Part shown: positions 2,992-63,062 of the stretch, one piece after another
How positions within the stretch are numbered: position 1 is the first letter of the stretch
How the letters are laid out: each line of letters starts with the position of its first letter
Assembly: GCA_009777795.1 (NCBI GenBank)
Contig: WRLC01000001.1
Coordinates: 61,509-125,508 of the forward strand
DNA length: 64,000 nt
Source: Candidatus Saccharimonadota bacterium
GTDB lineage: Bacteria; Patescibacteriota; Saccharimonadia; Saccharimonadales; Saccharimonadaceae
Reading direction: 5' to 3'
The notes under the pieces: generated by a model
Told to the model about the DNA's origin: nothing
What the model saw: the letters and a program-made list of their open reading frames with translations, nothing else
The model's database searches: none
Made by a program: the position numbers and the translations under genes

Positions 2992-3630
2992 ATGAAGAAG
3001 GTGGGAAAAGAGTGTTTGCGGGTAGTGTTTTATTTTCTGGCGTTTGGGATTTTGGGGTTTGTGGTGGAGACTTTGACGATTCGGTTGACGACGGGCACAT
3101 GGATGGCGCGAGGGTATTGGTTTACACCCGGTCATTATCCATTGGCAGGTTTTAAGTACATTGGGATGCCTTTGATACCGCTCTATGGGTTTGGCGGGCT
3201 GCTGGCGGTCTATGCGGTGAGGCCGCTTCGGAAACACCCAATCTTAGTATTCTTGGTCGGGATGGTGGCTTTGACGGCGCTAGAGTTTGTGGTGGGGTAT
3301 TTGCTGCTAGAGGTAGACAATGTGCGGCTGTGGTCGTATCCGCCGGGACTGGCTTATGCTTGGGGGATACTAGATGTATGGACGACGGTGGCTTGGGGAG
3401 CGCTAGCGGTGGGGTTGGTTTATATAGTTATACCGCCGCTTGAGAAATTATTTAGCCGCTTAGTTAAGCGGCGTTGGGCGCAGATATTGCTAATTGTGCT
3501 ACTGGTATTGGTGCTACTCTGTTCGTTGCATCGGGATGTGGGATTTTTGGCTGGGGCGCAGGGATTCGAACCCCGGAATGCTGGGACCAGAACCCAGTGC
3601 CTTACCGCTTGGCGACGCCCCAACTCCTAG
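2992..3630 (+). CDS. Integral membrane protein (about 5-6 TM helices), function unknown
   Basis: ATG lies directly after the upstream stop. Hydrophobic helices run throughout (FYFLAFGILGFVV, LVFLVGMVALTALEFVVGYLLL, ILLIVLLVLVLLC). The last ~28 codons are antisense to tRNA-Gln. Confidence 0.5.
   Translation: MKKVGKECLRVVFYFLAFGILGFVVETLTIRLTTGTWMARGYWFTPGHYPLAGFKYIGMPLIPLYGFGGLLAVYAVRPLRKHPILVFLVGMVALTALEFVVGYLLLEVDNVRLWSYPPGLAYAWGILDVWTTVAWGALAVGLVYIVIPPLEKLFSRLVKRRWAQILLIVLLVLVLLCSLHRDVGFLAGAQGFEPRNAGTRTQCLTAWRRPNS
3548..3622 (-). tRNA. tRNA-Gln (anticodon CTG), CCA encoded
   Basis: Reverse complement reads TGGGGCGTCGCCAAGCGGTAAGGCACTGGGTTCTGGTCCCAGCATTCCGGGGTTCGAATCCCTGCGCCCCAGCCA. Cloverleaf has acceptor TGGGGCG/CGCCCCA and anticodon loop TTCTGGT. 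Closely resembles bacterial tRNA-Gln. Confidence 0.9.
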
Positions 3631-4411: not shown

Positions 4412-4781
4412 TTTTGGCCTGCAGGTTTTATTAATCCAAGACGCAAAGGACCGCTGGACTATCCCAAAGGGTCATATCGAGGATGGCGAAGACGCCAAGG
4501 CGACGGCAATCCGGGAGATTGGCGAGGAAACCGGCCTGACCAATGTCAGGGTGCTAGGTTATATGGGGCAGGTGGATTTCAAATTCCAGCGCGATGATGC
4601 GCTAGTGTTGATGACAACTCAGGTTTATTTGATGGAGGCTGTGGGAGACGAAGATGTGCAGAAAGAGGAGTGGATGAACGGCATCCATTGGTTTGACTTG
4701 AAAGATGCGCTAGAAATGGTAGAATATGATGATGTGCGGAAGCTGATTGACGAAGCGCAGGAGAAAGTGAGGGGAAAATGA
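4350..4781 (+). CDS. NUDIX hydrolase
   Basis: Nudix box [23 protein letters not shown] (GX5EX7REUXEEXGU). The track ORF starts at 4323 inside nusB; ATG 4350 is also possible and the start is uncertain. Confidence 0.8.
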
Positions 4782-5506
4782 AATCAATAAGTAAAGAAAC
4801 AGAAGAACGATATGAGGCTTTTGCAGCGGAGCGAATCGGCTATAAGTTTAATGACTTGGAGTTGTTGATAACGGCGATGACCCATCGCAGCTATGTGAAC
4901 GAACACCGGTCGAGCACACACCGGCATAATGAACGGTTGGAGTTCTTGGGAGACGCGATTCTCGAGATGGCGATTACAGACTATCTATTTAAGAACACTT
5001 CGGACGCCGAAGGTAAACTAACGGCTTACCGGGCGGCGCTGGTGAAGACGGACTCGATTGCTGACGCTGGGGCGAAATTAGGTTTTGCGGAATACTTGCG
5101 GGTGAGCAAGGGTGAGCGGCAAAATAATGGCCCACGGGCTATGAAAGTGTTTGTGGCCGACGCTTTTGAGGCAGTGATTGGCGCGATATACTTGGATGGG
5201 GGCTATGAACCGGCTTCGGACTTTATTTACCGAAATATCGTGCCAAAATACGAAAAGATTATGGAACAGGGCAGTTGGTACGATCCAAAATCGCATTTGC
5301 AGGAGTGGGCGCAGGGGGAGTTAGGACAACAGCCGAAGTATCGGGTGCTGGACGAGAGTGGGCCAGATCACGATAAGTGGTTTCGGGTTGAGGCCAAGGT
5401 GAATAATAAGCGGGCAGGCGTAGGTGAGGCGTCAAGCAAGCAGGAAGCAGAGCGTCAAGCCGCGAAAGCAGCATTGCGAGCATTAAAGGTGGACAAGAAT
5501 AATTAG
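4778..5506 (+). CDS. rnc: Ribonuclease III
   Basis: RNase III signature ERLEFLGDAILE plus a C-terminal dsRBD (KSHLQEWAQ...FRVEAKV..GEASSKQEAERQAAKAAL). ATGA overlap with the upstream gene. Confidence 0.9.
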   Translation: MKSISKETEERYEAFAAERIGYKFNDLELLITAMTHRSYVNEHRSSTHRHNERLEFLGDAILEMAITDYLFKNTSDAEGKLTAYRAALVKTDSIADAGAKLGFAEYLRVSKGERQNNGPRAMKVFVADAFEAVIGAIYLDGGYEPASDFIYRNIVPKYEKIMEQGSWYDPKSHLQEWAQGELGQQPKYRVLDESGPDHDKWFRVEAKVNNKRAGVGEASSKQEAERQAAKAALRALKVDKNN

Positions 5507-20066: not shown

Positions 20067-20142
20067 TGGGGTGGATGACGGGATTTGAACCCGCGACAGC
20101 TGGAACCACAACCCAGAGCTCTACCGCTGAGCTACATCCACC
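20067..20142 (-). tRNA. tRNA-His (GTG) with encoded G-1 and CCA
   Basis: Reverse complement reads G-GTGGATGTAGCTCAGCGGTAGAGCTCTGGGTTGTGGTTCCAGCTGTCGCGGGTTCAAATCCCGTCATCCAC-C-CCA. Anticodon loop is TTGTGGT. Confidence 0.9.
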
Positions 20143-20231
20143 AAGTCTGGTAGAAATTTATTTTGTAAATTTCTTCCACACGTCGTCGGTCTGTAAAAGT
20201 GAGCAAGCTCCCTTTTCCATCCCTCCTAGTA

Positions 20232-20306
20232 TGGTGATCCCACCGGGAATCGAACCCGGGTTTTCAGGATGAGAACCTGATGTCCTAACCGCTAGACGAT
20301 GGGACC
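20232..20306 (-). tRNA. tRNA-Glu (CTC), CCA encoded
   Basis: Reverse complement reads GGTCCCATCGTCTAGCGGTTAGGACATCAGGTTCTCATCCTGAAAACCCGGGTTCGATTCCCGGTGGGATCACCA. Confidence 0.9.
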
Positions 20307-20324
20307 GTGTTATTAATGTGGTAC

Positions 20325-20399
20325 TGGTGATCCCACCGGGAGTCGAACCCGGGTTGCCAGGATGAAAACCTGGTGTCCTAACCGCTAGACGATGGGACC
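20325..20399 (-). tRNA. tRNA-Glu (TTC), CCA encoded
   Basis: Reverse complement reads GGTCCCATCGTCTAGCGGTTAGGACACCAGGTTTTCATCCTGGCAACCCGGGTTCGACTCCCGGTGGGATCACCA. It differs from the adjacent Glu-CTC gene at 5 positions. Confidence 0.9.
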
Positions 20400-56757: not shown

Positions 56758-58527
56758 ATGACAAAAGTAATTAAACGAGTAGCAAGTGCAACGTGTGCGG
56801 CAGCAGCATTTGGCGTGCTAGCAGGGATAGTAGCAAATAACTTCCAAGGAAGCCATGCGGATGGGTCGATGGATATTATTACGCTAGCAGAGACGGGGTC
56901 GTTAACGATTACGGCGAGCAGTGATACGACCTGTGCCAACTATGATGACGTCAATGGTGAGCTGTCGATTCTAGTACGGCCGGGGGCGATTGCGGCAGAC
57001 TGTATAACAATCAACGCCGAGACCGATAGCGCGTGGGGCTATACTTTGACTATCGACGGCCCAGATACCGGCAACCTAGCTCACGAGGGCAACTCGTCGT
57101 TTATTAATGCAACGACGGGGACGATGACGGCGCCGAGCACGTTTGGCGCGCAGACAACGGCGGGGGCATGGGGCTTTGGTATCCCACTAGGGCAGATCCA
57201 AGGCAATACGGAATTAGGGTTGGGCTTTGATGCATCATACACGGTGTTGGAAGCAAATAACACAACAAACACCGCTAGGTATGCTGCGGTGCCGACAAGC
57301 CCAGCCATCTTTTCCGTCACGAGCGAAGCCTCGTCGGATGACTACAACATCTTCTTTGCGATGTCGCTAGGTGGCTTGATTCCAACTGGTGCCTACAGCG
57401 GGCAGGTGGTGATTTCGGGCTTGATGAACGTGGCGGTGCCGCCGGAGCCAACGGTGTCGGCGATTGCGCCAAATAACGGTACAGTGTTAGGCGGCACAGC
57501 GGTGACGATTACTGGGGATAACTTCATGATGGATAGCGGTAGCTTGGTGGTATCAGTGATGATCGGTACCTTCCCATGCGACAGTATTAATGTGTCCAGC
57601 AACACCACACTGACTTGTACGACCTCGGCTGGTAGCGTGGGGGCGCAGGATGTGATAGTAAATACAATGGGCGGCACAGCGACGCTTACGGGTGGCTTTA
57701 CTTATAACGCAGCAGGTGTGGCAACGGGTGATAATATCCAAACCGTCACCGCCGCTAACTGTCCAACAACGCGAACTCGAGTAGTTGACGCCAGAGACAA
57801 CAGCAGCTACTGGATACGTAAAGTAGGCGACCTCTGCTGGATGGAGACTAACCTTGCCTACAAAGGCGGTGGTACCAACACTTACGGCGATACCATGACT
57901 ATCACCGCAGGTACAAGTAGCGCTGGCACAGTAAACGCTAACTCCACCGGCTCCTCCGCGGTCTGCTACGGCTCTAACGCCTCCATGAATACTAACGGCC
58001 AAGGCTGCTTCTGGGAGCCAACTGGTAGCAATATCACAGCAGGTGCAACCGACCCTTCAACCAGTACCTCAGGTACAGGTCAATACGGGGTACTCTATAA
58101 CTGGTGCGCCGCAATGGGCAACCAATCAGCTGCCTGCCAGACAGGCGCAGCAACTCAACCAAACCAATCAGTGAACGGTGGCACAGGAGCAGGCGCCACG
58201 GGCACTACGATCTATAACGTCTGCCCAAGCGGTTGGAGGCTCCCTACAGGTGAAGCTACAACTGGCGAGTTTACACTACTTAACAACACGCTTAACAGCG
58301 GCTCAACTTCTAGCCCTACAGGCCTCTTCACCAACGGCCTCTATATGTACGCCGGCTACTTCGCCAATGGCTCGTTCATCTATCAGGGCTCAGACGGCGG
58401 CTATTGGTCTTCTACCGTTGTCAGTGCCGCCAGTGCCTTCAGACTGGCCTTCTTCAGCTCCAATGTCTATCCTGCGAACTCGAGCAATAAGGGCTACGGC
58501 CTCTCTGTTCGCTGTGTTGCGCCCTAA
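56758..58527 (+). CDS. DGR target: secreted protein with IPT/TIG domain and C-terminal Fib_succ_major (C-type-lectin-fold) domain carrying the VR
   Basis: AAGGGAG SD precedes ATG 56758. Signal peptide MTKVIKRVASATCAAAAFGVLAGIVANNFQGSHA. The IPT/TIG domain reads PTVSAIAPNNGTVLGGTAVTITGDNF...GGFTY. Fib_succ_major-like motifs are DARDNSSYWIRKVGDLCWMETNL, YGVLYNW, CPSGWRLPT, YWSST and GLSVRCV. Confidence 0.85.
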   Translation: MTKVIKRVASATCAAAAFGVLAGIVANNFQGSHADGSMDIITLAETGSLTITASSDTTCANYDDVNGELSILVRPGAIAADCITINAETDSAWGYTLTIDGPDTGNLAHEGNSSFINATTGTMTAPSTFGAQTTAGAWGFGIPLGQIQGNTELGLGFDASYTVLEANNTTNTARYAAVPTSPAIFSVTSEASSDDYNIFFAMSLGGLIPTGAYSGQVVISGLMNVAVPPEPTVSAIAPNNGTVLGGTAVTITGDNFMMDSGSLVVSVMIGTFPCDSINVSSNTTLTCTTSAGSVGAQDVIVNTMGGTATLTGGFTYNAAGVATGDNIQTVTAANCPTTRTRVVDARDNSSYWIRKVGDLCWMETNLAYKGGGTNTYGDTMTITAGTSSAGTVNANSTGSSAVCYGSNASMNTNGQGCFWEPTGSNITAGATDPSTSTSGTGQYGVLYNWCAAMGNQSAACQTGAATQPNQSVNGGTGAGATGTTIYNVCPSGWRLPTGEATTGEFTLLNNTLNSGSTSSPTGLFTNGLYMYAGYFANGSFIYQGSDGGYWSSTVVSAASAFRLAFFSSNVYPANSSNKGYGLSVRCVAP

Positions 58528-58531
58528 CTAG
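58348..58531 (+). repeat. DGR variable region (VR)
   Basis: Covers the last 59 codons, the stop codon and 4 nt beyond. It is 162/184 identical to the reverse complement of 60637-60820, and every mismatch is at a TR adenine. Confidence 0.9.
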
Positions 58532-58545
58532 ATTTGCAGAAAGAA

Positions 58546-58604
58546 GCCTCTAGGTGAGGGGGTCAGGCGGACGCAGGAGATGAAGGGCCTTTAGGCCCGG
58601 AGGC
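58546..58604 (+). other. GC-rich nested hairpin just downstream of the VR (candidate homing-associated structure)
   Basis: Outer pairing is GCCTC (58546-58550) with GAGGC (58600-58604). Inner pairing is GGGCC-TTTA-GGCCC (58585-58598). Confidence 0.3.
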
Positions 58605-58690
58605 GACCGCGGCCAGCCCGAACCCCGAACCAAGGCCTGTGGAAAACTCGATTAAAAAACTATATTAATAATAAGAAGAAAGGATACAAA

Positions 58691-59416
58691 ATGGGTAATA
58701 CAGCGGTGGGCGCTGACAAAGAGAAGAGCTACATGAAGATGAAGACTCAGACCGAACAATTGCGCTATGAATTCACTAACCAAGATACAATAGTACTGAG
58801 GAAGAACGGTGTGTTCCACAAGGCGATGGGCAACTCGGCGATAATCCTCAAGAGTATGGGGGTCGAGACAAAGGTGCGGACTGGTTTTAGCCAAGCTATC
58901 AAGCAGGAAACCTTTGAGTTGTCGGTGCACATGGGACAGATTGAGGAGCTAAAGCGACAACTGAGAGAAAAGTGTAAGGAAGTGCTAAGAGAGGATGGGG
59001 ACTTTTTCATCATCCGGCTGAAAGAGCCGATTCCGGCTGAGAAGCTAAAGCAAATGAAAAAGAGCGCGATTGTAAAGATCGAAGCCACAGAGAGTATCTT
59101 GATGCGAAAGCGGAAAGAAACACCGCTGGCGAAAGAGGTACGGGATTTGTTTAGCGAGGCGACCTACTTAGCAAGGGCGCTACATGGGGTGGACGGGCAG
59201 TGCTTGGCGCGGATGATTTTGGAGCAGATACTGGCGTTGCAACGAGCGGTGCGAGCCCTGATGCGAGAGGAAGGGTCGGACGCGGCCAGACAAGCGGTAC
59301 TGGATGCAGCAGACGACGTGCAGGGCCTGTTGCTCTTGGTGGTTAGTTTTACGGAGCAGGCAGACCGGCTGGCCCGGATGGGTCGGGGTTTGAACAGGAT
59401 TATCAGCCGTGTCTAG
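58691..59416 (+). CDS. Avd-like DGR accessory protein with an extra ~130-aa N-terminal domain
   Basis: Lies between the target and the RT, and its stop overlaps the RT start (GTGTCTAG). The C-terminal ~100 aa are helical and Arg/Ala/Leu-rich, consistent with an Avd four-helix bundle. The N-terminal half is unassigned. Confidence 0.5.
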   Translation: MGNTAVGADKEKSYMKMKTQTEQLRYEFTNQDTIVLRKNGVFHKAMGNSAIILKSMGVETKVRTGFSQAIKQETFELSVHMGQIEELKRQLREKCKEVLREDGDFFIIRLKEPIPAEKLKQMKKSAIVKIEATESILMRKRKETPLAKEVRDLFSEATYLARALHGVDGQCLARMILEQILALQRAVRALMREEGSDAARQAVLDAADDVQGLLLLVVSFTEQADRLARMGRGLNRIISRV

Positions 59417-60590
59417 GCTGGAACCCGAGACTGAAGTCGCGTTGATGAACGAGGAACTGAAGGGGGCGGGCGAAGATACGCTTTGGCAGTGGTTAGCCGG
59501 GCGCTTTTATTTGGCCTTTGCTGAGGCGAGGAAAGGCAAATTGAAGACGATTAACGAACAGCAGTTCGAAGAGGACCGCGACCGTAATTTGGCGGATTTG
59601 GCTTACCAAGTAATCCGGCGCGATTATGAGCCAAAGCGGGGAGTGGCATTTATTATCACCGAGCCGGTACCGCGGGAGATCTTTGCGGCGAGCTTTTGTG
59701 ATAGGATGGTGCACCATTTTTTAATCCAGATGACAGGCAGTTTTTGGGACAAGAGATTATCGCCCCGGAGTTTTAGTTGTCGCGAGGGCAAGGGGACGCT
59801 CTATGGGGTGAAGCAGCTAGAAAAGGATTTGGCCAAGGCGACGCAGAACTGGGCGAACGAGGTATGGATAATGAAAATTGATTTTGAAGGGTATTTTATG
59901 AGTTTGCCGCGGCAGTATCTGTTTGAGCGGGTGGAGTGGGGGCTCTCGCGTCAGTTTCCGACCGGTGGCCCGGTCTATGAGACCTGCCATTACTTATGGA
60001 GTAAGGTGCTGTTTGACGACCCGACGGATGGCGTGAGGATTAAGGGCTCGGCCAAGAACTGGAACACTTTGCCGCGGTCCAAGAGTTTGTTTTTCGCGCC
60101 GAAAGGCCGGGGGATAGTGATTGGCAACTTGACGTCGCAGTGGGTGAGCAATATGGCGCTTGACCCGTTTGACCGCTATGTGCAGTTTGAGCTGGGTTGC
60201 AAATATTATGGCCGTTATGTGGATGATGCTTATTTTATCGCCGAGAGCAAGGAGGAATTGCTGGAGATGAGGACCAAGATAACCGAGTTTGTAGAAAAGT
60301 TGGGACTAAAGATTCACCCGCGGAAGTTCTACCTGCAGCCGGCATCAAAGGGCGTCTCGTTTTTGGGGGCGGTAGTCTACCCGGGGCGGACGGTGCTAGC
60401 GGCGCGGTTCCGGAAGAATCTAAGGCGGCTAAAAGTAGCGATAGCGTGGCAGGGGCTGACGCAAGATAACTTAACCAGCCTAATCGCCTATAAGGGGCTG
60501 GCGCAACATTATAATTATAGTAAGACTTTTCGGAATATCTTTGGCAACAATGTATTAAAGGACATGAAAAAGTGGCAAGACCTAGCCTAG
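59409..60590 (+). CDS. DGR reverse transcriptase
   Basis: RT motifs 1-7 are PREIFAASFCDRMVHHFL, CREGKGTLYG, MKIDFEGYFMSL, GIVIGNLTSQWVSNMALD (the DGR-type GxxxSQ), YGRYVDDAYFI (YxDD) and LKIHPRK...GVSFLGAVV. ATG 59445 is an alternative start. Confidence 0.9.
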   Translation: MSRLEPETEVALMNEELKGAGEDTLWQWLAGRFYLAFAEARKGKLKTINEQQFEEDRDRNLADLAYQVIRRDYEPKRGVAFIITEPVPREIFAASFCDRMVHHFLIQMTGSFWDKRLSPRSFSCREGKGTLYGVKQLEKDLAKATQNWANEVWIMKIDFEGYFMSLPRQYLFERVEWGLSRQFPTGGPVYETCHYLWSKVLFDDPTDGVRIKGSAKNWNTLPRSKSLFFAPKGRGIVIGNLTSQWVSNMALDPFDRYVQFELGCKYYGRYVDDAYFIAESKEELLEMRTKITEFVEKLGLKIHPRKFYLQPASKGVSFLGAVVYPGRTVLAARFRKNLRRLKVAIAWQGLTQDNLTSLIAYKGLAQHYNYSKTFRNIFGNNVLKDMKKWQDLA

Positions 60591-60604
60591 GGTAAAGACC
60601 CTAG
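60587..60604. other. Hairpin spanning the RT stop codon, between RT and TR
   Basis: CTAGGG-taaaga-CCCTAG. It could terminate RT transcription or belong to the minus-strand TR RNA 3' region. Confidence 0.3.
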
Positions 60605-60636
60605 AGCCAAGTCATGGCGGCTAATGCATTTCAACG

Positions 60637-60820
60637 CTAGTTAGGGCGCAACACAGCGAACAGAGTTGCCGTTGCCCTTATTGTTCGTGTTCGCAGGATT
60701 GACATTGGAGCTGTTGAAGTTCAGTCTGAAGGCATTGGTGGCACTGTTAACGGTAGAAGACCAATAGTTGCCGTTTGAGCCCTGATTGTTGAACGAGCCA
60801 TTGTTGAAGTTGCCGGCGTA
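60637..60820 (-). repeat. DGR template repeat (TR), sense strand is the minus strand
   Basis: The reverse complement encodes YAGNFNNGSFNNQGSNGNYWSSTVNSATNAFRLNFNSSNVNPANTNNKGNGNSVRCVAP*. It has 18 AAY codons and lies in a 513-nt ORF-free gap. Confidence 0.9.
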
Positions 60821-61103
60821 GGCCGTAAGTCAACCTCCGTAGAGCAATCCTTGGAAGGACGCAACCGTACGAAACGTGATGAAGATTCAGCTTGTTCTTG
60901 CTGCTCGAACCTTAGTAAGAGTAGAAGCCCTGTGCGTTAAAAGCGCCGCGATGATCTCAACAGGGGAGGACTAATTATAAAATAATCAGTGCTGAATCGG
61001 ATTTGAAAATCAAACGAGAAAAAGCAACTCAGGGTAAGCTTGGAAGCTATCCTAACTAGGCTTATTATCGCTGTACTTGGCAAAGGTCTTACCACTAGCA
61101 TGA

Positions 61104-63062
61104 TTATATCATATGTTGCTCGAGCGCGCGAATTTGGTCGCGGAGTTGCCCGGCATCTTCGAAACGGAGCTCGGCGGCGGCGAGCTGCATTTGGCCGGTC
61201 AGTTCGTGAATTAGCTCTTTGACTTCGCTTTTCGGGACCTTCCTGAGGTCGAGTTTGGTTGGTTGGTCCTTTTTGGGGGCGATGGCGCGGAGGCCTTCGG
61301 TGATGTTTTTCTGGATGCCTTCGGGGGTGATGCCGTGGGTTTGGTTGTATTCTTGCTGGACGGCGCGGCGGGCTTCGGTCTCGCCAATGGCGCGGGCCAT
61401 GCTGTCGGTGATGTTGTCGGCGTACATGATGACTTGGCCGTTTAAGTGCCGGGCGGCGCGGCCGATGGTTTGGATGAGGGCGGACTCGCTCCGGAGGAAG
61501 CCCTCTTTGTCGGCGTCAAGGATGGCGACGAGCGAAACTTCCGGCAAGTCGAGGCCTTCACGCAGTAAATTGATGCCAACGAGGACGTCATAGACGCCGC
61601 TACGGAGGTCGCGGAGGATGTCGGAGCGCTCTAAGGTGGGGATGTCGGAATGGAGGTAGGCAGTTTTGATTTTCAGTTCTTGCAAGTAGATGGAGAGGTC
61701 TTCGGCCATTTTTTTGGTTAGGGTGGTAATGAGGACGCGTTGGCCGAGCTTGACGCGTTGGTCGATCTCTTCGACGAGGTCGTCGACTTGGTGTTTGACG
61801 GGGCGGACGATGATTTCGGGGTCTAAGAGGCCAGTGGGGCGGACGACTTGGCGGACAGGGTCGGGCGAGACGCCAAGCTCAAATTCGCTCGGTGTGGCGG
61901 AGACGAAGATGACGCGGTGGATTTTGTGGTAGAATTCGTCGAATTTGAGGGGGCGGTTGTCGAGGGCGGAGGGGAGGCGAAAGCCGTAGTCGACGAGGTT
62001 TTGCTTGCGGGCGCGGTCGCCGTTATACATGCCGCGGACTTGGGGGATGGTGATGTGGCTCTCGTCGACAAAAAGCAGGAAGTCGTCGGGGAAGTAGTCG
62101 ATGAGAGTGCTGGGCGGGGCGCCCTCCTCGCGGCCGGAAAGGTGGCGCGAGTAATTTTCGATGCCTTTGACAAAGCCGGTGGCCTCGAGCATTTCGAGGT
62201 CGTATTTGGTGCGCTGGGAGAGGCGCTCGGCCTCGAGATGGCGGCCGCGCTCTAAGAAATAGGCGTGGCGGTCTTTGAACTCGGCGCGGATGCCTTGGAT
62301 AGCGGCGGTGATCTTGTCTTTGGGGGTGGCGTAGTGGGAGGCGGGGAAGAGGAAAATCTCGGAGAGCTCCTGAAGTGTGTTGCCGGTCAAGGGGTCAATG
62401 AGTTTGAGTTTTTCGACTTGGTCGAAGGCGAGCTCGATACGGATGGCGTGCTCACCACCGGCAGGATAAATATCAATGGTGTCGCCCTTGACGCGGAAGG
62501 TACCGCGCTTGAAGTCAATGTCGTTTCGGTGGTAGAGGATGTTGGTGAGGAAGCGGGTCAGCCACTGGACAGGGTGGGAATCGCCAACTTTGAGCAGGAG
62601 CGACATGTCTTGGTAGTCGCTGGGGTCGCCGATGCCGTAGATACAGGAGACGCTGGCGATGACAATGACGTCTTGGCGGGTGAGTAAGGCGGCGGTGGCG
62701 GCGTGGCGCATTTTTTCGATTTCGTCGTTGATGGCACTGTCTTTTTCAATGTAGGTATCGGAGGCGGCGATGTAGGCCTCGGGCTGGTAGTAGTCGAAGT
62801 AGGAGACAAAGTAGTGGACGGCGTTATCGGGAAAAAATTGCTTGAACTCGGCGAAGAGTTGGGCGGCGAGGGTTTTATTGTGGGCGAGGATGAGGGCCGG
62901 GCGGCCGTAGTTTTGGATGACGTTGGCCATGGTGAAGGTCTTGCCCGAGCCGGTGACGCCAAGTAGAGTTTGCTCGCGTTGGCGGGTGAGCCCTTGACCG
63001 AGAGCTTTGATAGCCTTAGGTTGGTCGCCGGCCGGTTGATAAGGGCTTTGGAGGTTAAACAT
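61104..63062 (-). CDS. uvrB: Excinuclease ABC subunit B
   Basis: GVTGSGKTFTMANVI Walker A, DESH box, helicase motifs and a C-terminal UVR domain (AAAELRFEDAGQLRDQI). Confidence 0.95.
   Translation of the reverse strand: MFNLQSPYQPAGDQPKAIKALGQGLTRQREQTLLGVTGSGKTFTMANVIQNYGRPALILAHNKTLAAQLFAEFKQFFPDNAVHYFVSYFDYYQPEAYIAASDTYIEKDSAINDEIEKMRHAATAALLTRQDVIVIASVSCIYGIGDPSDYQDMSLLLKVGDSHPVQWLTRFLTNILYHRNDIDFKRGTFRVKGDTIDIYPAGGEHAIRIELAFDQVEKLKLIDPLTGNTLQELSEIFLFPASHYATPKDKITAAIQGIRAEFKDRHAYFLERGRHLEAERLSQRTKYDLEMLEATGFVKGIENYSRHLSGREEGAPPSTLIDYFPDDFLLFVDESHITIPQVRGMYNGDRARKQNLVDYGFRLPSALDNRPLKFDEFYHKIHRVIFVSATPSEFELGVSPDPVRQVVRPTGLLDPEIIVRPVKHQVDDLVEEIDQRVKLGQRVLITTLTKKMAEDLSIYLQELKIKTAYLHSDIPTLERSDILRDLRSGVYDVLVGINLLREGLDLPEVSLVAILDADKEGFLRSESALIQTIGRAARHLNGQVIMYADNITDSMARAIGETEARRAVQQEYNQTHGITPEGIQKNITEGLRAIAPKKDQPTKLDLRKVPKSEVKELIHELTGQMQLAAAELRFEDAGQLRDQIRALEQHMI

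Follow-up and report, generated by a model that had tools for sequence, protein, structure and literature searches.

A diversity-generating retroelement of Candidatus Saccharibacteria with a predicted two-domain accessory protein and a putative structured template RNA

Results

The window, a 64-kb stretch of DNA, contains a target gene, an accessory gene and a reverse transcriptase (RT) gene in the same orientation, followed by an inverted template repeat (TR) that is embedded in a longer predicted RNA (Table 1). The target protein combines a hydrophobic N-terminal signal or anchor with an IPT/TIG domain and a C-terminal FISUMP/Fib_succ_major domain that bears the variable repeat (VR; Pfam: TIG 8.4e-13, Fib_succ_major 1.9e-12; NCBIfam: TIGR02145, 1.9e-18). 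NCBI names it IPT/TIG domain-containing protein, Candidatus Saccharibacteria. The element is a diversity-generating retroelement (DGR) that rewrites the tip of a Saccharibacteria surface protein.

Table 1. Features of the DGR locus (positions in the window)
Feature	Position	Strand	Remark
Target (variable-protein) gene, 589 aa	56758..58527	+	ORF
Variable repeat (VR)	58348..58531	+	last 59 codons of target, stop codon, 4 nt
VR-flank element	58528..58650	+	CTAGATTTGCAGAA motif at homology boundary, then long imperfect GC-rich hairpin
Accessory protein, 241 aa	58691..59416	+	between target gene and RT
DGR reverse transcriptase, 393 aa	59409..60590	+	YVDD catalytic box, IGNLTSQ motif
Complete template RNA of the DGR, about 530 nt	60566..61096	-	both ends inferred
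RNA 3' segment ("S")	60566..60637	-	abuts TR
Template repeat (TR)	60637..60820	-	sense on minus strand; 52 A, 18 AAY codons
5' structured domain	60880..61007	-	conserved UUUCAAAUCCG, helices P1-P4
P3 loop ("L" strand)	60934..60954	-	H1 strand UCAUCGCGGC 60954-60945; H2 strand UUUUAACGC 60942-60934
Extended -10 promoter element TGATATAAT	61103..61111	-	overlaps uvrB stop codon

An inverted-repeat search returned arms at 58348-58536 and 60632-60820 (189 nt, 87% complementary). In an ungapped alignment of the VR with the reverse complement of the TR, 162 of 184 nucleotides are identical, and all 22 mismatches fall where the TR sense strand carries A (A>T 10, A>G 9, A>C 3; hypergeometric p = 1.7e-14 given the 52 adenines of the TR). 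Homology ends abruptly beyond these limits. Sixteen codons are changed, none of them synonymously, and 14 belong to the 18 AAY codons of the TR. The mutated adenines occupy codon positions 1 and 2 only, and the 3'-terminal 29 nt of the TR are free of change. The initial annotation had reached the same repeat pair, mismatch and codon counts and TR and VR peptides by hand; computation reproduced every one of them, with no mismatch at a non-adenine position. No second VR was found in the window.

The RT starts with GTG, such that its gene overlaps the accessory stop by 8 nt, and contains both motifs previously read from this ORF. It matches Pfam RVT_1 (3.5e-13), and by far its closest solved relative is the Bordetella DGR enzyme bRT (8ub7_A, E = 3.6e-27), which aligns with two separate parts of the query (residues 36-176 and 229-366). 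The corresponding E-value for a group II intron RT structure is 1.6e-5, and the NCBIfam models for group II intron, retron and DRT enzymes all remain far under their cut-offs (69 vs 300 bits for group II intron, 39 vs 235 for retron). As judged by these sequence comparisons, the protein belongs with the DGR RTs, in agreement with the initial annotation.

The accessory protein found no match in sequence searches of Pfam, NCBIfam or the PDB. An AF2 model of the whole protein (pLDDT 85.5) places in its C-terminal half (residues about 125-241) a fold that resembles the Avd chains 8ub7_E, 4dwl_B and 2rld (prob 0.93-0.99, TM 0.60-0.63). The N-terminal domain (about residues 1-120), modelled separately with a pLDDT of 91.8, has low-rmsd structural matches to MutS only (1nne_B, 1ewq, 7oto, 5yk4), with 1nne_B superposing at 3.5 A over 72 columns (prob 0.99). 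The Foldseek E-values behind both assignments lie between 0.05 and 0.65, and hhalign of the protein against an approximate E. coli MutS sequence was not significant. The models thus show a predicted MutS-domain-I-like alpha/beta fold fused to an Avd-like helical bundle. About 112 diverged clusters at 50% identity share this architecture, nearly all at full length, and the gene adjoins the RT gene in every relative. PF22296 (bAvd) is the sole Pfam family matched by several relatives (3/48, best E 0.0056); Pfam MutS_I was not matched. We found no description of this family in the literature searched. The cassette has no separate avd gene. The earlier designation "Avd-like ORF" therefore holds for the predicted fold of the C-terminal half, but not for the protein as a plain Avd: with 241 aa it is about twice the size of Avd, appears to be a two-domain fusion and lacks any Pfam or NCBIfam match.

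On the minus strand, the TR appears to be part of a template RNA that consists, in order, of a terminal helix, the 5' structured domain, a linker, the TR and the 3' segment. This unit is convergent with the RT gene, and its 3' end overlaps that gene. In the window and in L001, L002, L006, L010, L011, L013-18, L019 and L023, the RNA 5' helix is preceded by a TGnTATAAT-like box at a constant distance. A two-hexamer sigma-70 scan did not call this minus-strand promoter because it requires a -35 match and no good -35 is present. We infer that the template RNA is transcribed separately from its own promoter. Duplex energies cannot tell one strand from the other, and the strand was assigned from the adenine pattern together with the promoter box and the U-run.

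The terminal helix would join the first nucleotides of the RNA to the antisense of the last RT codons through P0a (61096-61084 with 60583-60571) and P0b (61081-61075 with 60612-60606). When cognate and non-cognate duplex energies were compared across 11 lineages, 0 of 20,000 permutations were as good as the cognate pairing, and in L013, L023, L026 and L024 the helix sequences are wholly different yet complementary. In L002, where an insertion has displaced the TR unit, a duplicated RT 3' end travels along.

The 5' structured domain is closed by helix P1 (60998-60991/60891-60884) and contains the hairpins P2 (60990-60970), P3 (60966-60960/60933-60928) and P4 (60924-60901). RNAalifold predicts P1-P4 from 13 sequences, with compensatory changes in 22 of 26 pairs. 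Pairing is found in 91% of cells as compared to 30-46% with slid partners, and 0 of 500 shuffles reached the observed values. The single-sequence fold also recovers P1-P4 (z -2.8). A covariance model finds one match per locus, with 109.5 bits for the match in the window and no second one there. An Rfam search with this domain returned no match even at E<=10, and the literature searched contains no description of the template RNA. The pairing and shuffle values indicate that the RNA structure flanking the TR is under purifying selection with compensatory change. The inverted repeat noted at the outset is thus confirmed as a TR but not as a bare repeat; it lies within a large, conserved and apparently structured RNA with a promoter of its own.

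The 3' segment begins with an H2 strand (GCGUUGAAA, 60637-60629) that abuts the TR, followed by an H1 strand (GCCGCCAUGA, 60621-60612), a stem-loop CUAGGGU-CUUU-ACCCUAG (60604-60587) that spans the RT stop codon, the 3' strand of P0a and the U-run. The part of the segment at and below 60590, where the RT stop codon lies, is antisense to the final codons of the RT gene. The P3 loop pairs with the bases directly 3' of the TR in a covarying two-part duplex (H1 and H2). H1 exists in eight distinct sequence versions, each complementary to its own partner, and permuting cognate against non-cognate partners gave p = 0.0005 with the conserved H2 strand excluded. The minimum free energy fold of the window RNA recovers both P0 and this long-range duplex. 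The end of TR/VR homology and the start of H2 lie at most 1 nt apart in six of seven scored lineages, while in L010 homology ends 4 nt before H2. An alignment of L019 by eye shows the same junction.

Downstream of the VR, the motif CTAGATTTGCAGAA is followed by a hairpin with its apex GGGCC-TTTA-GGCCC at 58585-58598. The motif together with a 25-35 bp hairpin is also present in L001, L010, L011, L013-15, L019 and L021/22. As DNA, the hairpin of the window is weakly better than shuffles (z -1.6) and of marginal stability. We consider motif and hairpin a candidate target-recognition (IMH/hairpin-like) element.

Contig L030, from another sample, is 99.9% identical to the window, with four differences in 4569 nt. 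Three of these fall into the last 42 nt of the VR (58495, 58496, 58501), all at sites where the TR has A. Since three of the four differences are VR changes at TR adenines, we conclude that the DGR is recently active, the between-sample evidence at this exact locus consisting of three bases of a single truncated contig. Two independent contigs, L029 and L030, have the same TR region as the window, and each of them breaks at the VR. VR variation between the samples is thus confined to TR adenines while the TR stays invariant, the pattern for which the initial annotation had proposed to test. In a pair of relatives with the same layout (L031 and L033), all 27 VR differences lie at TR-A sites and the TR is identical. 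The VR of assembly P0136 is identical to that of the window. The order target, accessory, RT and inverted TR recurs in all relatives with enough sequence. L019 has a mirror arrangement (RNA unit, accessory, RT, inverted target), and in L028, a contig of 2.9 kb with coverage 0.76, a VR-bearing target gene is joined directly to the 3' RNA segment beside the RT.

Discussion

We think it very probable that this locus is a complete and currently active DGR of Candidatus Saccharibacteria with a template RNA of about 530 nt that functions as outlined here. Completeness, as claimed at first reading, is borne out by the adenine-specific TR/VR pair, the kinship of the RT to bRT, the position of the VR at the 3' end of a FISUMP surface-protein gene and the accessory gene between target and RT. 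The DGR class is already known. What appears to be new is the fused MutS-like/Avd helper and the putatively separate, structured template RNA, and the initial annotation was right to seek novelty in the cassette and its layout, not in the mechanism.

In the proposed mechanism, the template RNA would be transcribed alone from the minus strand and bind the RT and the accessory protein, the Avd-like bundle of which may take the role that Avd has for Bordetella bRT. H2 would be the template:primer duplex, and cDNA synthesis would be cis-primed, probably by a 2'-OH at the 3' terminus of the strand in the P3 loop. If so, the primer strand would be found on the 5' side of the template, where retrons have it, whereas Bordetella Sp is on the 3' side. 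The RT would then copy the TR, misincorporating opposite A, and the cDNA would replace the VR. Guidance would come from the 29 nt of unmutated 3' homology, from the conserved TAGATTTGCAGAA flank and from the long hairpin. In the most speculative step, the MutS-domain-I-like module may engage the cDNA:VR heteroduplex with its many mismatches.

It is possible, if rather doubtful, that the element is instead a canonical DGR primed in the Bordetella manner by RNA 3' of the TR (60566-60636 or further into the RT antisense). The 5' domain would then do no more than scaffold protein binding or act in processivity or as a stop, and the duplex with the P3 loop would just hold the RNA together. In Bordetella, the only biochemically studied system, the primer strand does lie downstream of the TR. 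In addition, the 7-bp tetraloop stem-loop in the 3' segment resembles stem-loops that bind Avd and have been reported for 207 DGRs, likewise downstream of the TR, and P0 resembles the roughly 13-bp "cPRT Stop" duplexes described between upstream and downstream sequence. However, the helix abutting the TR 3' boundary has its partner strand in the 5' domain in every lineage, and the polarity of H2 is right for extension into the TR. We saw no covarying fold-back from the 3' segment to the TR 3' end, and this short segment (about 70 nt) is mostly occupied by H1, H2, the stem-loop and P0.

That the adenine pattern records past activity of a now fossil DGR seems very improbable. The identical VR in P0136 and the single VR in the window would fit such a history, but every ORF is intact with catalytic motifs, the TR retains its 18 AAY codons, and the flanking RNA structure appears to be maintained by purifying selection. 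Moreover, L030 differs from the window at three TR-A sites of the VR as compared to one site across the other ~4.5 kb, and two other assemblies break at the VR. We give similarly little credence to the idea that the inverted repeats serve mainly for homologous inversion of the accessory-RT segment, as a switch instead of or besides retrohoming. The mirror arrangement of L019 and the junction in L028, the expected product of a TR x VR inversion, speak for it, but inversion cannot generate adenine-only differences. L019 keeps the 3' segment with the TR and is therefore not a simple TR x VR inversion isomer, and L028, at its length and coverage, could be a misassembly across the repeat. Finally, a chance or duplicative inverted repeat (a target pseudogene fragment) beside an unrelated group II intron or retron RT, as the weak NCBIfam matches might suggest, is refuted by the adenine-only mismatches, by NCBIfam scores far under cut-off and by the match to bRT; Rfam also finds no intron or retron RNA.

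Comparison with known systems

The DGR of Bordetella phage BPP-1 (mtd-avd-TR-brt; RNP PDB 8ub7 series) shares with this element adenine-specific transfer from TR to VR, an RT of the same clade with an SQ motif, a VR at the 3' end of a gene for a ligand-binding protein, and an Avd-like helical bundle. Its RNA requires flanks that pair as a template:primer duplex and as a further duplex that links the two sides of the TR, and its cDNA synthesis is cis-primed from a 2'-OH (bioRxiv 10.1101/2023.10.23.563531). Here too, the TR appears to lie inside a longer RNA with flanks that pair across it and one duplex at its 3' end. In contrast to Bordetella, where all parts share one strand, with the TR placed between avd and brt, the TR RNA would form a separate convergent unit overlapping the RT 3' end; there is precedent for a TR and an RT on different strands (PMC5758913). 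Sp is located 3' of the TR, but here the large structured domain and the strand that pairs at the TR 3' boundary are found on the 5' side. The boundary duplex is located just outside TR/VR homology, whereas its templated side lies inside homology in Bordetella, so the analogy is not exact. The Avd-like domain is, unlike Bordetella Avd, predicted to be fused to a MutS-I-like domain, and the hairpin downstream of the VR measures 25-35 bp instead of 8 bp.

MutS-like (MSL) DGR proteins (Wu et al. 2018, PMC5758913; Bacteroides Msl, bioRxiv 10.1101/2024.11.15.621889) are likewise small, DGR-linked and similar in fold to the mismatch-recognition domain I of MutS. In sequence, the accessory motif G-x-[FY]-[HY]-K-A-x-G-N-S-A appears to align where MutS has GDFYELFxxDA, with an invariant lysine at the position of the MutS glutamate. 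In published cases, MSL is encoded by an ORF of its own alongside a separate avd, whereas both modules are predicted here in one polypeptide.

DGRs of CPR/Patescibacteria (clade 2, Roux et al. 2021, PMC8144416; architecture B3, Wu et al. 2018) share the host phylum, the chromosomal location and C-type-lectin-like variable domains. TR-(avd)-RT, in which avd is encoded on the other strand, has been reported as the dominant CPR architecture. In this element the order is target, fused accessory, RT and (TR), and it is the TR that lies on the other strand. CPR/Patescibacteria DGRs are reportedly also the subject of Paul et al. 2017.

The likeness to retron msr-msd RNA is purely topological: the template is preceded by the putative primer strand, a duplex with the sequence just 3' of the template would set the start site, and the RNA ends pair. 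The RT does not belong to the retron RTs, and the template carries protein-coding sequence, which is homed into a target gene.

TR/VR Pair and Target Gene

A repeat search of the window, which belongs to a Candidatus Saccharibacteria MAG, returned inverted-repeat arms at 58348–58536 and 60632–60820. An ungapped comparison of the VR with the reverse complement of the TR (coordinates in the table) confirmed that this repeat is real: 184 nt align with 22 mismatches, and identity collapses directly beyond these limits. All 22 mismatches fall on A of the TR sense (minus) strand (A>T 10, A>G 9, A>C 3), for which the hypergeometric p is 1.7e-14 given 52 A in the TR. Sixteen codons differ, all of them non-synonymously, and 14 of these correspond to AAY codons of the TR, which has 18. 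The hand alignment of the initial annotation, which had mismatches only at TR adenines and the same codon counts, is thus reproduced by computation. The changed A's are confined to codon positions 1 and 2, and the 3'-terminal 29 nt of the repeat, a candidate IMH-like block, are free of changes. The VR makes up the last 59 codons of the target ORF, at its 3' end; a search for a second VR in the window found none. A conserved motif, TAGATTTGCAGAA, and a 25–35 bp GC-rich hairpin lie 3' of every VR in the window and its relatives. As DNA, the window's own hairpin at this position is barely above shuffles (z −1.6).

Features of the cassette and of the putative template RNA (window coordinates; RNA features are read on the minus strand)
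Feature	Position	Strand	Remarks
Target gene	56758–58527	+	Hydrophobic N-terminus, IPT/TIG domain, C-terminal FISUMP/Fib_succ_major domain with VR (Pfam, NCBIfam)
VR	58348–58531	+	
Hairpin apex downstream of VR	58585–58598		
Accessory gene	58691–59416		
RT gene	59409–60590		
Candidate extended −10 box, TGATATAAT	61111–61103	−	Overlaps uvrB stop codon
P0a	61096–61084 / 60583–60571	−	3' strand is antisense of last RT codons
P0b	61081–61075 / 60612–60606	−	
5' domain	61007–60880	−	Invariant UUUCAAAUCCG and four helices P1–P4
Long-range duplex	P3 loop 60954–60934 with segment right after TR	−	
TR	60637–60820	−	
H2	UUUUAACGC with GCGUUGAAA (60637–60629)	−	
H1	UCAUCGCGGC with GCCGCCAUGA (60621–60612)	−	
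Stem-loop	60604–60587	−	7-bp stem, tetraloop; between H1 and P0a

Two JGI contigs carry the same locus as the window. One of them (L029) starts 19 nt past the VR and, from 58550 on, matches the window at 100% identity. The other (L030) starts inside the VR and is 99.9% identical over 4569 nt; three of its four differences, at 58495, 58496 and 58501, are its VR differences, and all three are TR-A positions. The TR of both contigs is identical to that of the window. In a related pair of loci (L031 and L033), 27 of 27 VR differences lie on TR adenines, with no change in the TR. The 90% cluster of the target protein holds one other member, from a second assembly, with a VR identical to the window's. 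In this population evidence, which consists of assemblies, the VR differs between samples at TR-A sites.

Reverse Transcriptase

The RT contains the catalytic YVDD box and IGNLTSQ as its version of the [ILV]GxxxSQ motif. In a PDB sequence search, its best solved relative was the Bordetella DGR RT (bRT, 8ub7_A) with E 3.6e-27 over query residues 36–176 and 229–366, whereas group II intron RTs reached E 1.6e-5 at best. We could reject a group II intron because the corresponding NCBIfam RT model (TIGR04416) scored 69 bits against a cut-off of 300 and Rfam detected no intron RNA domains. A retron was rejected on the same grounds (RT model 39 bits, cut-off 235; no Rfam retron match), and the RT also stayed far below the cut-offs of the DRT models of NCBIfam. 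The initial annotation had named both motifs and assigned the RT to DGRs. With the adenine pattern, the position of the VR in the target gene and its differences between samples, the DGR-type RT supports this reading of the cassette as a complete DGR, a known class that includes CPR members, as was also noted there (PMC5758913; PMC8144416). The GTG start of the RT overlaps the accessory stop by 8 nt (59409–59416), which suggests translational coupling of the two genes.

Accessory Protein

The accessory ORF codes for 241 aa. Neither the single sequence nor profiles of 14 and 48 members found a match in Pfam, NCBIfam or PDB sequences, where the family profiles met designed helical proteins only; fold comparison was the one informative approach. 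An AlphaFold model built with 14 homologues comprises two domains (pLDDT 85.5). In a fold search with this model, the C-terminal half (pI 9.0) matched the Avd chains 8ub7_E, 8ube_D, 4dwl_B and 2rld with probabilities of 0.93–0.99, a TM (target) of 0.60–0.63 and an rmsd of 3.1–4.1 Å over ~106 columns. This half is therefore predicted to adopt the four-helix Avd fold. The N-terminal domain modelled alone reached a pLDDT of 91.8, and its only low-rmsd, high-probability Foldseek matches were MutS structures (prob 0.93–0.99, E 0.05–0.3), such as 1nne_B (prob 0.99, 3.5 Å over 72 columns), 1ewq, 7oto and 5yk4. Since the E-values are weak (0.05–0.65), we infer the Avd-like and MutS-like assignments at the level of fold only. 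The earlier designation of this gene as an Avd-like ORF holds for the modelled C-terminal half; it does not hold for an Avd of ~110–130 aa recognizable by family profile, as the protein is longer, matches no Pfam or NCBIfam family and, in the model, contains a second domain of predicted MutS-like fold.

Sequence comparisons added a little to this picture. PF22296 (bAvd) was the sole Pfam family with matches in several of the 48 diverged relatives (3/48, best E 0.0056). Pfam MutS_I matched neither the accessory protein nor its relatives, and an hhalign comparison of the N-terminal domain with residues 1–139 of E. coli MutS was not significant; a short stretch of that comparison coincides with the expected first helix, which is a hint only. 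In our own reading of the alignment, the conserved stretch G-x-[FY]-[HY]-K-A-x-G-N-S-A sits at GDFYELFxxDA of MutS domain I. The PF22296 matches and this stretch provide modest sequence-level support for the two assignments.

An exhaustive profile search enlarged the family to 112 clusters at 50% identity, whereas a re-run of the word-indexed homologue search with a broader alignment did not enlarge it. The predicted MutS-like/Avd fusion is the conserved architecture of this family, because nearly all of the 112 clusters (nearly all 230–320 aa) align over both domains. Both modules lie on a single continuous ORF in about 100 cluster representatives as well as in the window, and the window cassette contains no other small helical ORF. 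Published MSL genes, in contrast, are separate ORFs beside a separate avd (PMC5758913), and the Bacteroides Msl is a separate ORF too (bioRxiv 10.1101/2024.11.15.621889); here, one polypeptide appears to carry both modules. The literature that we searched describes no fused MutS-like/Avd form.

Predicted Template RNA

Conservation across lineages extends to the flanks of the TR, whose comparison supports a covarying RNA architecture around the TR. TGnTATAAT-like boxes occur at equal distance in other lineages, and a mirror-form locus (L019, labelled Nomurabacteria) adds TTGACT as a −35 element. A two-hexamer promoter scan did not call the minus-strand template-RNA promoter, and the case for this candidate rests on the conservation of the extended −10 box.

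The terminal helix (P0a and P0b) stays complementary with entirely different sequences, for example GGTACTACTCAAG / CTTGAGTAGTACC in one related locus (L013). Pairing of a 5' strand with its cognate 3' strand is far more stable than with non-cognate strands, and none of 20,000 permutations was as good. The four helices of the 5' domain were predicted unaided by RNAalifold, with compensatory changes in 22 of 26 pairs. Ninety-one percent of the cells are paired, compared to 30–46% with slid partners, and none of 500 shuffles reached the observed covariation. The single window sequence gives the same fold (z −2.8). A covariance model of this domain found exactly one copy per locus, including one in the window (109.5 bits), and Rfam returned no match in the cassette at the gathering threshold or at E ≤ 10.

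A two-part duplex is predicted to connect the P3 loop to the bases 3' of the TR. H1 occurs in eight sequence versions, and in each of them the two strands complement one another (L006, a related locus, is ambiguous), and the permutation test of cognate against non-cognate long-range pairs gave p = 0.0005 with the conserved H2 strand excluded. Automated extraction of H1 and H2 mis-picked the H2 strand of the window; the window duplex was taken from other analyses. TR/VR homology ends at most 1 nt from the start of H2 in six of seven scored lineages and 4 nt before H2 in the remaining one (L010); in L019 it ends at the same junction, as judged by eye. This boundary holds even where homology extends 20–60 nt beyond the target stop codon. 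At the junction the TR reads YTAG/CGUUGAAA and the VR YTAG/AUUUGMA, with the slash marking the end of homology.

Assignment of the RNA strand by duplex energy was undiscriminating (sense versus antisense: −421 versus −400 for the long-range duplex, −468 versus −507 for the terminal helix). The idea that G-U wobbles decide the strand is withdrawn.

In most lineages the terminal helix and the 5' domain flank a further conserved stretch, GGAUUAGC – short hairpin – (C)AUACCCU (window 61031–61074, minus strand). The RT ORF shares its final ~25 nt, stop codon included (60566–60590), with the 3' end of the putative convergent template RNA, and the C-terminal RT codons and the terminal helix would therefore restrict each other's sequence. 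Where the helix is AGUGGCAAGAC, the RT ends in a conserved KWQDLA; the lineage with a different helix has RWYYSS.

Related Loci

We fetched 33 related loci. Wherever the sequence suffices, the order is target gene with VR, accessory gene, RT and inverted TR just 3' of the RT, and TR/VR mismatches are T-only on the RT strand. The same layout recurs in a Saccharibacteria DGR with an RT of only 47% identity (L031–L033). TR and RT on different strands are on record as an occasional arrangement (PMC5758913). The mirror-form locus L019 (3400–8108, RT 56% identical) has its target gene inverted downstream of accessory-RT; its RNA unit, with promoter, 5' domain, TR, 3' segment and terminator-like hairpin, lies upstream of accessory-RT in the same orientation. 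TR/VR homology of this locus extends 64 nt beyond the stop codon. We considered and rejected the idea that the window cassette and L019 are inversion isomers produced by TR × VR recombination, as each of them keeps its 3' RNA segment with the TR. What sets the two apart is how the accessory-RT module is oriented.

Several loci depart from the common layout. In L028 (1–2914, RT 656–1828) an intact minus-strand target gene (1873–2913) stands beside the RT, and its adenine-depleted VR-like repeat runs directly into a TR-type 3' RNA segment (CCTAGCGTTGAAAC...), at a position expected to hold the TR with the 5' domain. This could be the product expected of a TR × VR inversion of the accessory-RT segment, or else a misassembly across the repeat (coverage 0.76). 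L010 (6546–7038), like L009 and L016, has two tandem TR units that follow a single 5' domain. Each unit is accompanied by a 3' segment of its own and by a copy of the helix strand that resembles the RT 3' end. The first TR of L010 matches the adjacent VR with 18 T-only mismatches; the second reaches 82% identity, with mismatches of mixed type, and its VR may lie outside the contig.

In L002 (2036–2560) two inserted short ORFs, the second with a weak Polbeta (nucleotidyltransferase) Pfam match, separate the TR unit from the RT stop. A duplicate of the final ~20 nt of the RT gene adjoins the TR unit beyond the insertion. A separate NTP_transf_2/Polbeta and HepT-like pair of toxin-antitoxin type lies further downstream (4464–5122). 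The MAG contigs L004 (6709 onward) and L005 (934 onward) contain target and accessory genes with no RT after them; their homology to the full cassette of L014 ends with the accessory gene, and the L005 sequence then runs on into a copy of the stretch that precedes the target. L031 (6652–7458, minus strand) carries two tandem ~400-nt non-coding copies, rich in GC hairpins and 75% identical, between the template RNA and an RNase Y gene; Rfam matched neither copy. The window itself contains three minus-strand tRNA genes within 330 nt (20070–20399), an ordinary genomic context, and single tRNAs at 3551, 38806 and 53701.

Discussion

To our knowledge, DGRs are the only natural targeted protein hypermutation system in prokaryotes, and almost all that we know of their mechanism comes from one phage element. 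They are under development as tools for directed evolution. We regard as new the predicted family of fused MutS-like/Avd accessory proteins, a convergent and apparently independently transcribed template RNA with a structured 5' domain, and a covarying duplex from a loop of this domain to the TR boundary. The differences between samples point to ongoing diversification of a surface TIG/FISUMP protein in an episymbiotic, small-genome Saccharibacteria lineage to whose lifestyle host attachment is central.

In the Bordetella RNP, the TR 3' end is paired with the Sp region in a template:primer duplex; Sp forms another duplex with RNA that lies upstream of the TR, and the 2'-OH of Sp A56 primes the cDNA (bioRxiv 10.1101/2023.10.23.563531). 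By analogy, the minus-strand RNA would be made from its own promoter and would bind the fused accessory protein together with the RT. H2 would serve as the template:primer duplex, the polarity of the loop strand being suited to extension into the TR, and A-mutagenized cDNA would replace the VR. Our tentative proposal, to which we give somewhat less than an even chance, is that the template RNA of such Saccharibacteria DGRs is permuted and retron-like, an antisense RNA with its own transcription. Its primer strand would lie in the hairpin loop of the 5' domain and be clamped just 3' of the TR by the covarying two-part duplex, and the RNP would be built on a single polypeptide that is MutS-mismatch-domain-like and Avd-like. 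Alternatively, the short 3' segment could supply the primer and the 5' domain could act as a scaffold only, which we consider rather unlikely.

On this proposal, the fused polypeptide would physically couple cDNA synthesis to the handling of the mismatched cDNA:VR heteroduplex. The natural, if predicted, MutS-like/Avd fusion argues that the poorly understood MSL factor works together with Avd and the RT in one complex, a point that is relevant because host MutS reportedly lowers retrohoming 5–10 fold in Bacteroides (bioRxiv 10.1101/2024.11.15.621889). For the same reason we speculate that the MutS-like module may handle or shield mismatched heteroduplex.

The covariation lends good support to a second DGR RNA design, with a putative primer-side domain upstream of the template and an RNA convergent to the RT, and makes the universality of the Bordetella RNP features directly testable. 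On the reading proposed here, the Bordetella RNP would be one of at least two RNA topologies for cis-priming in DGRs: there, the primer-side domain lies 3' of the template, whereas in the window it would lie 5' of the template, as it does in retrons.
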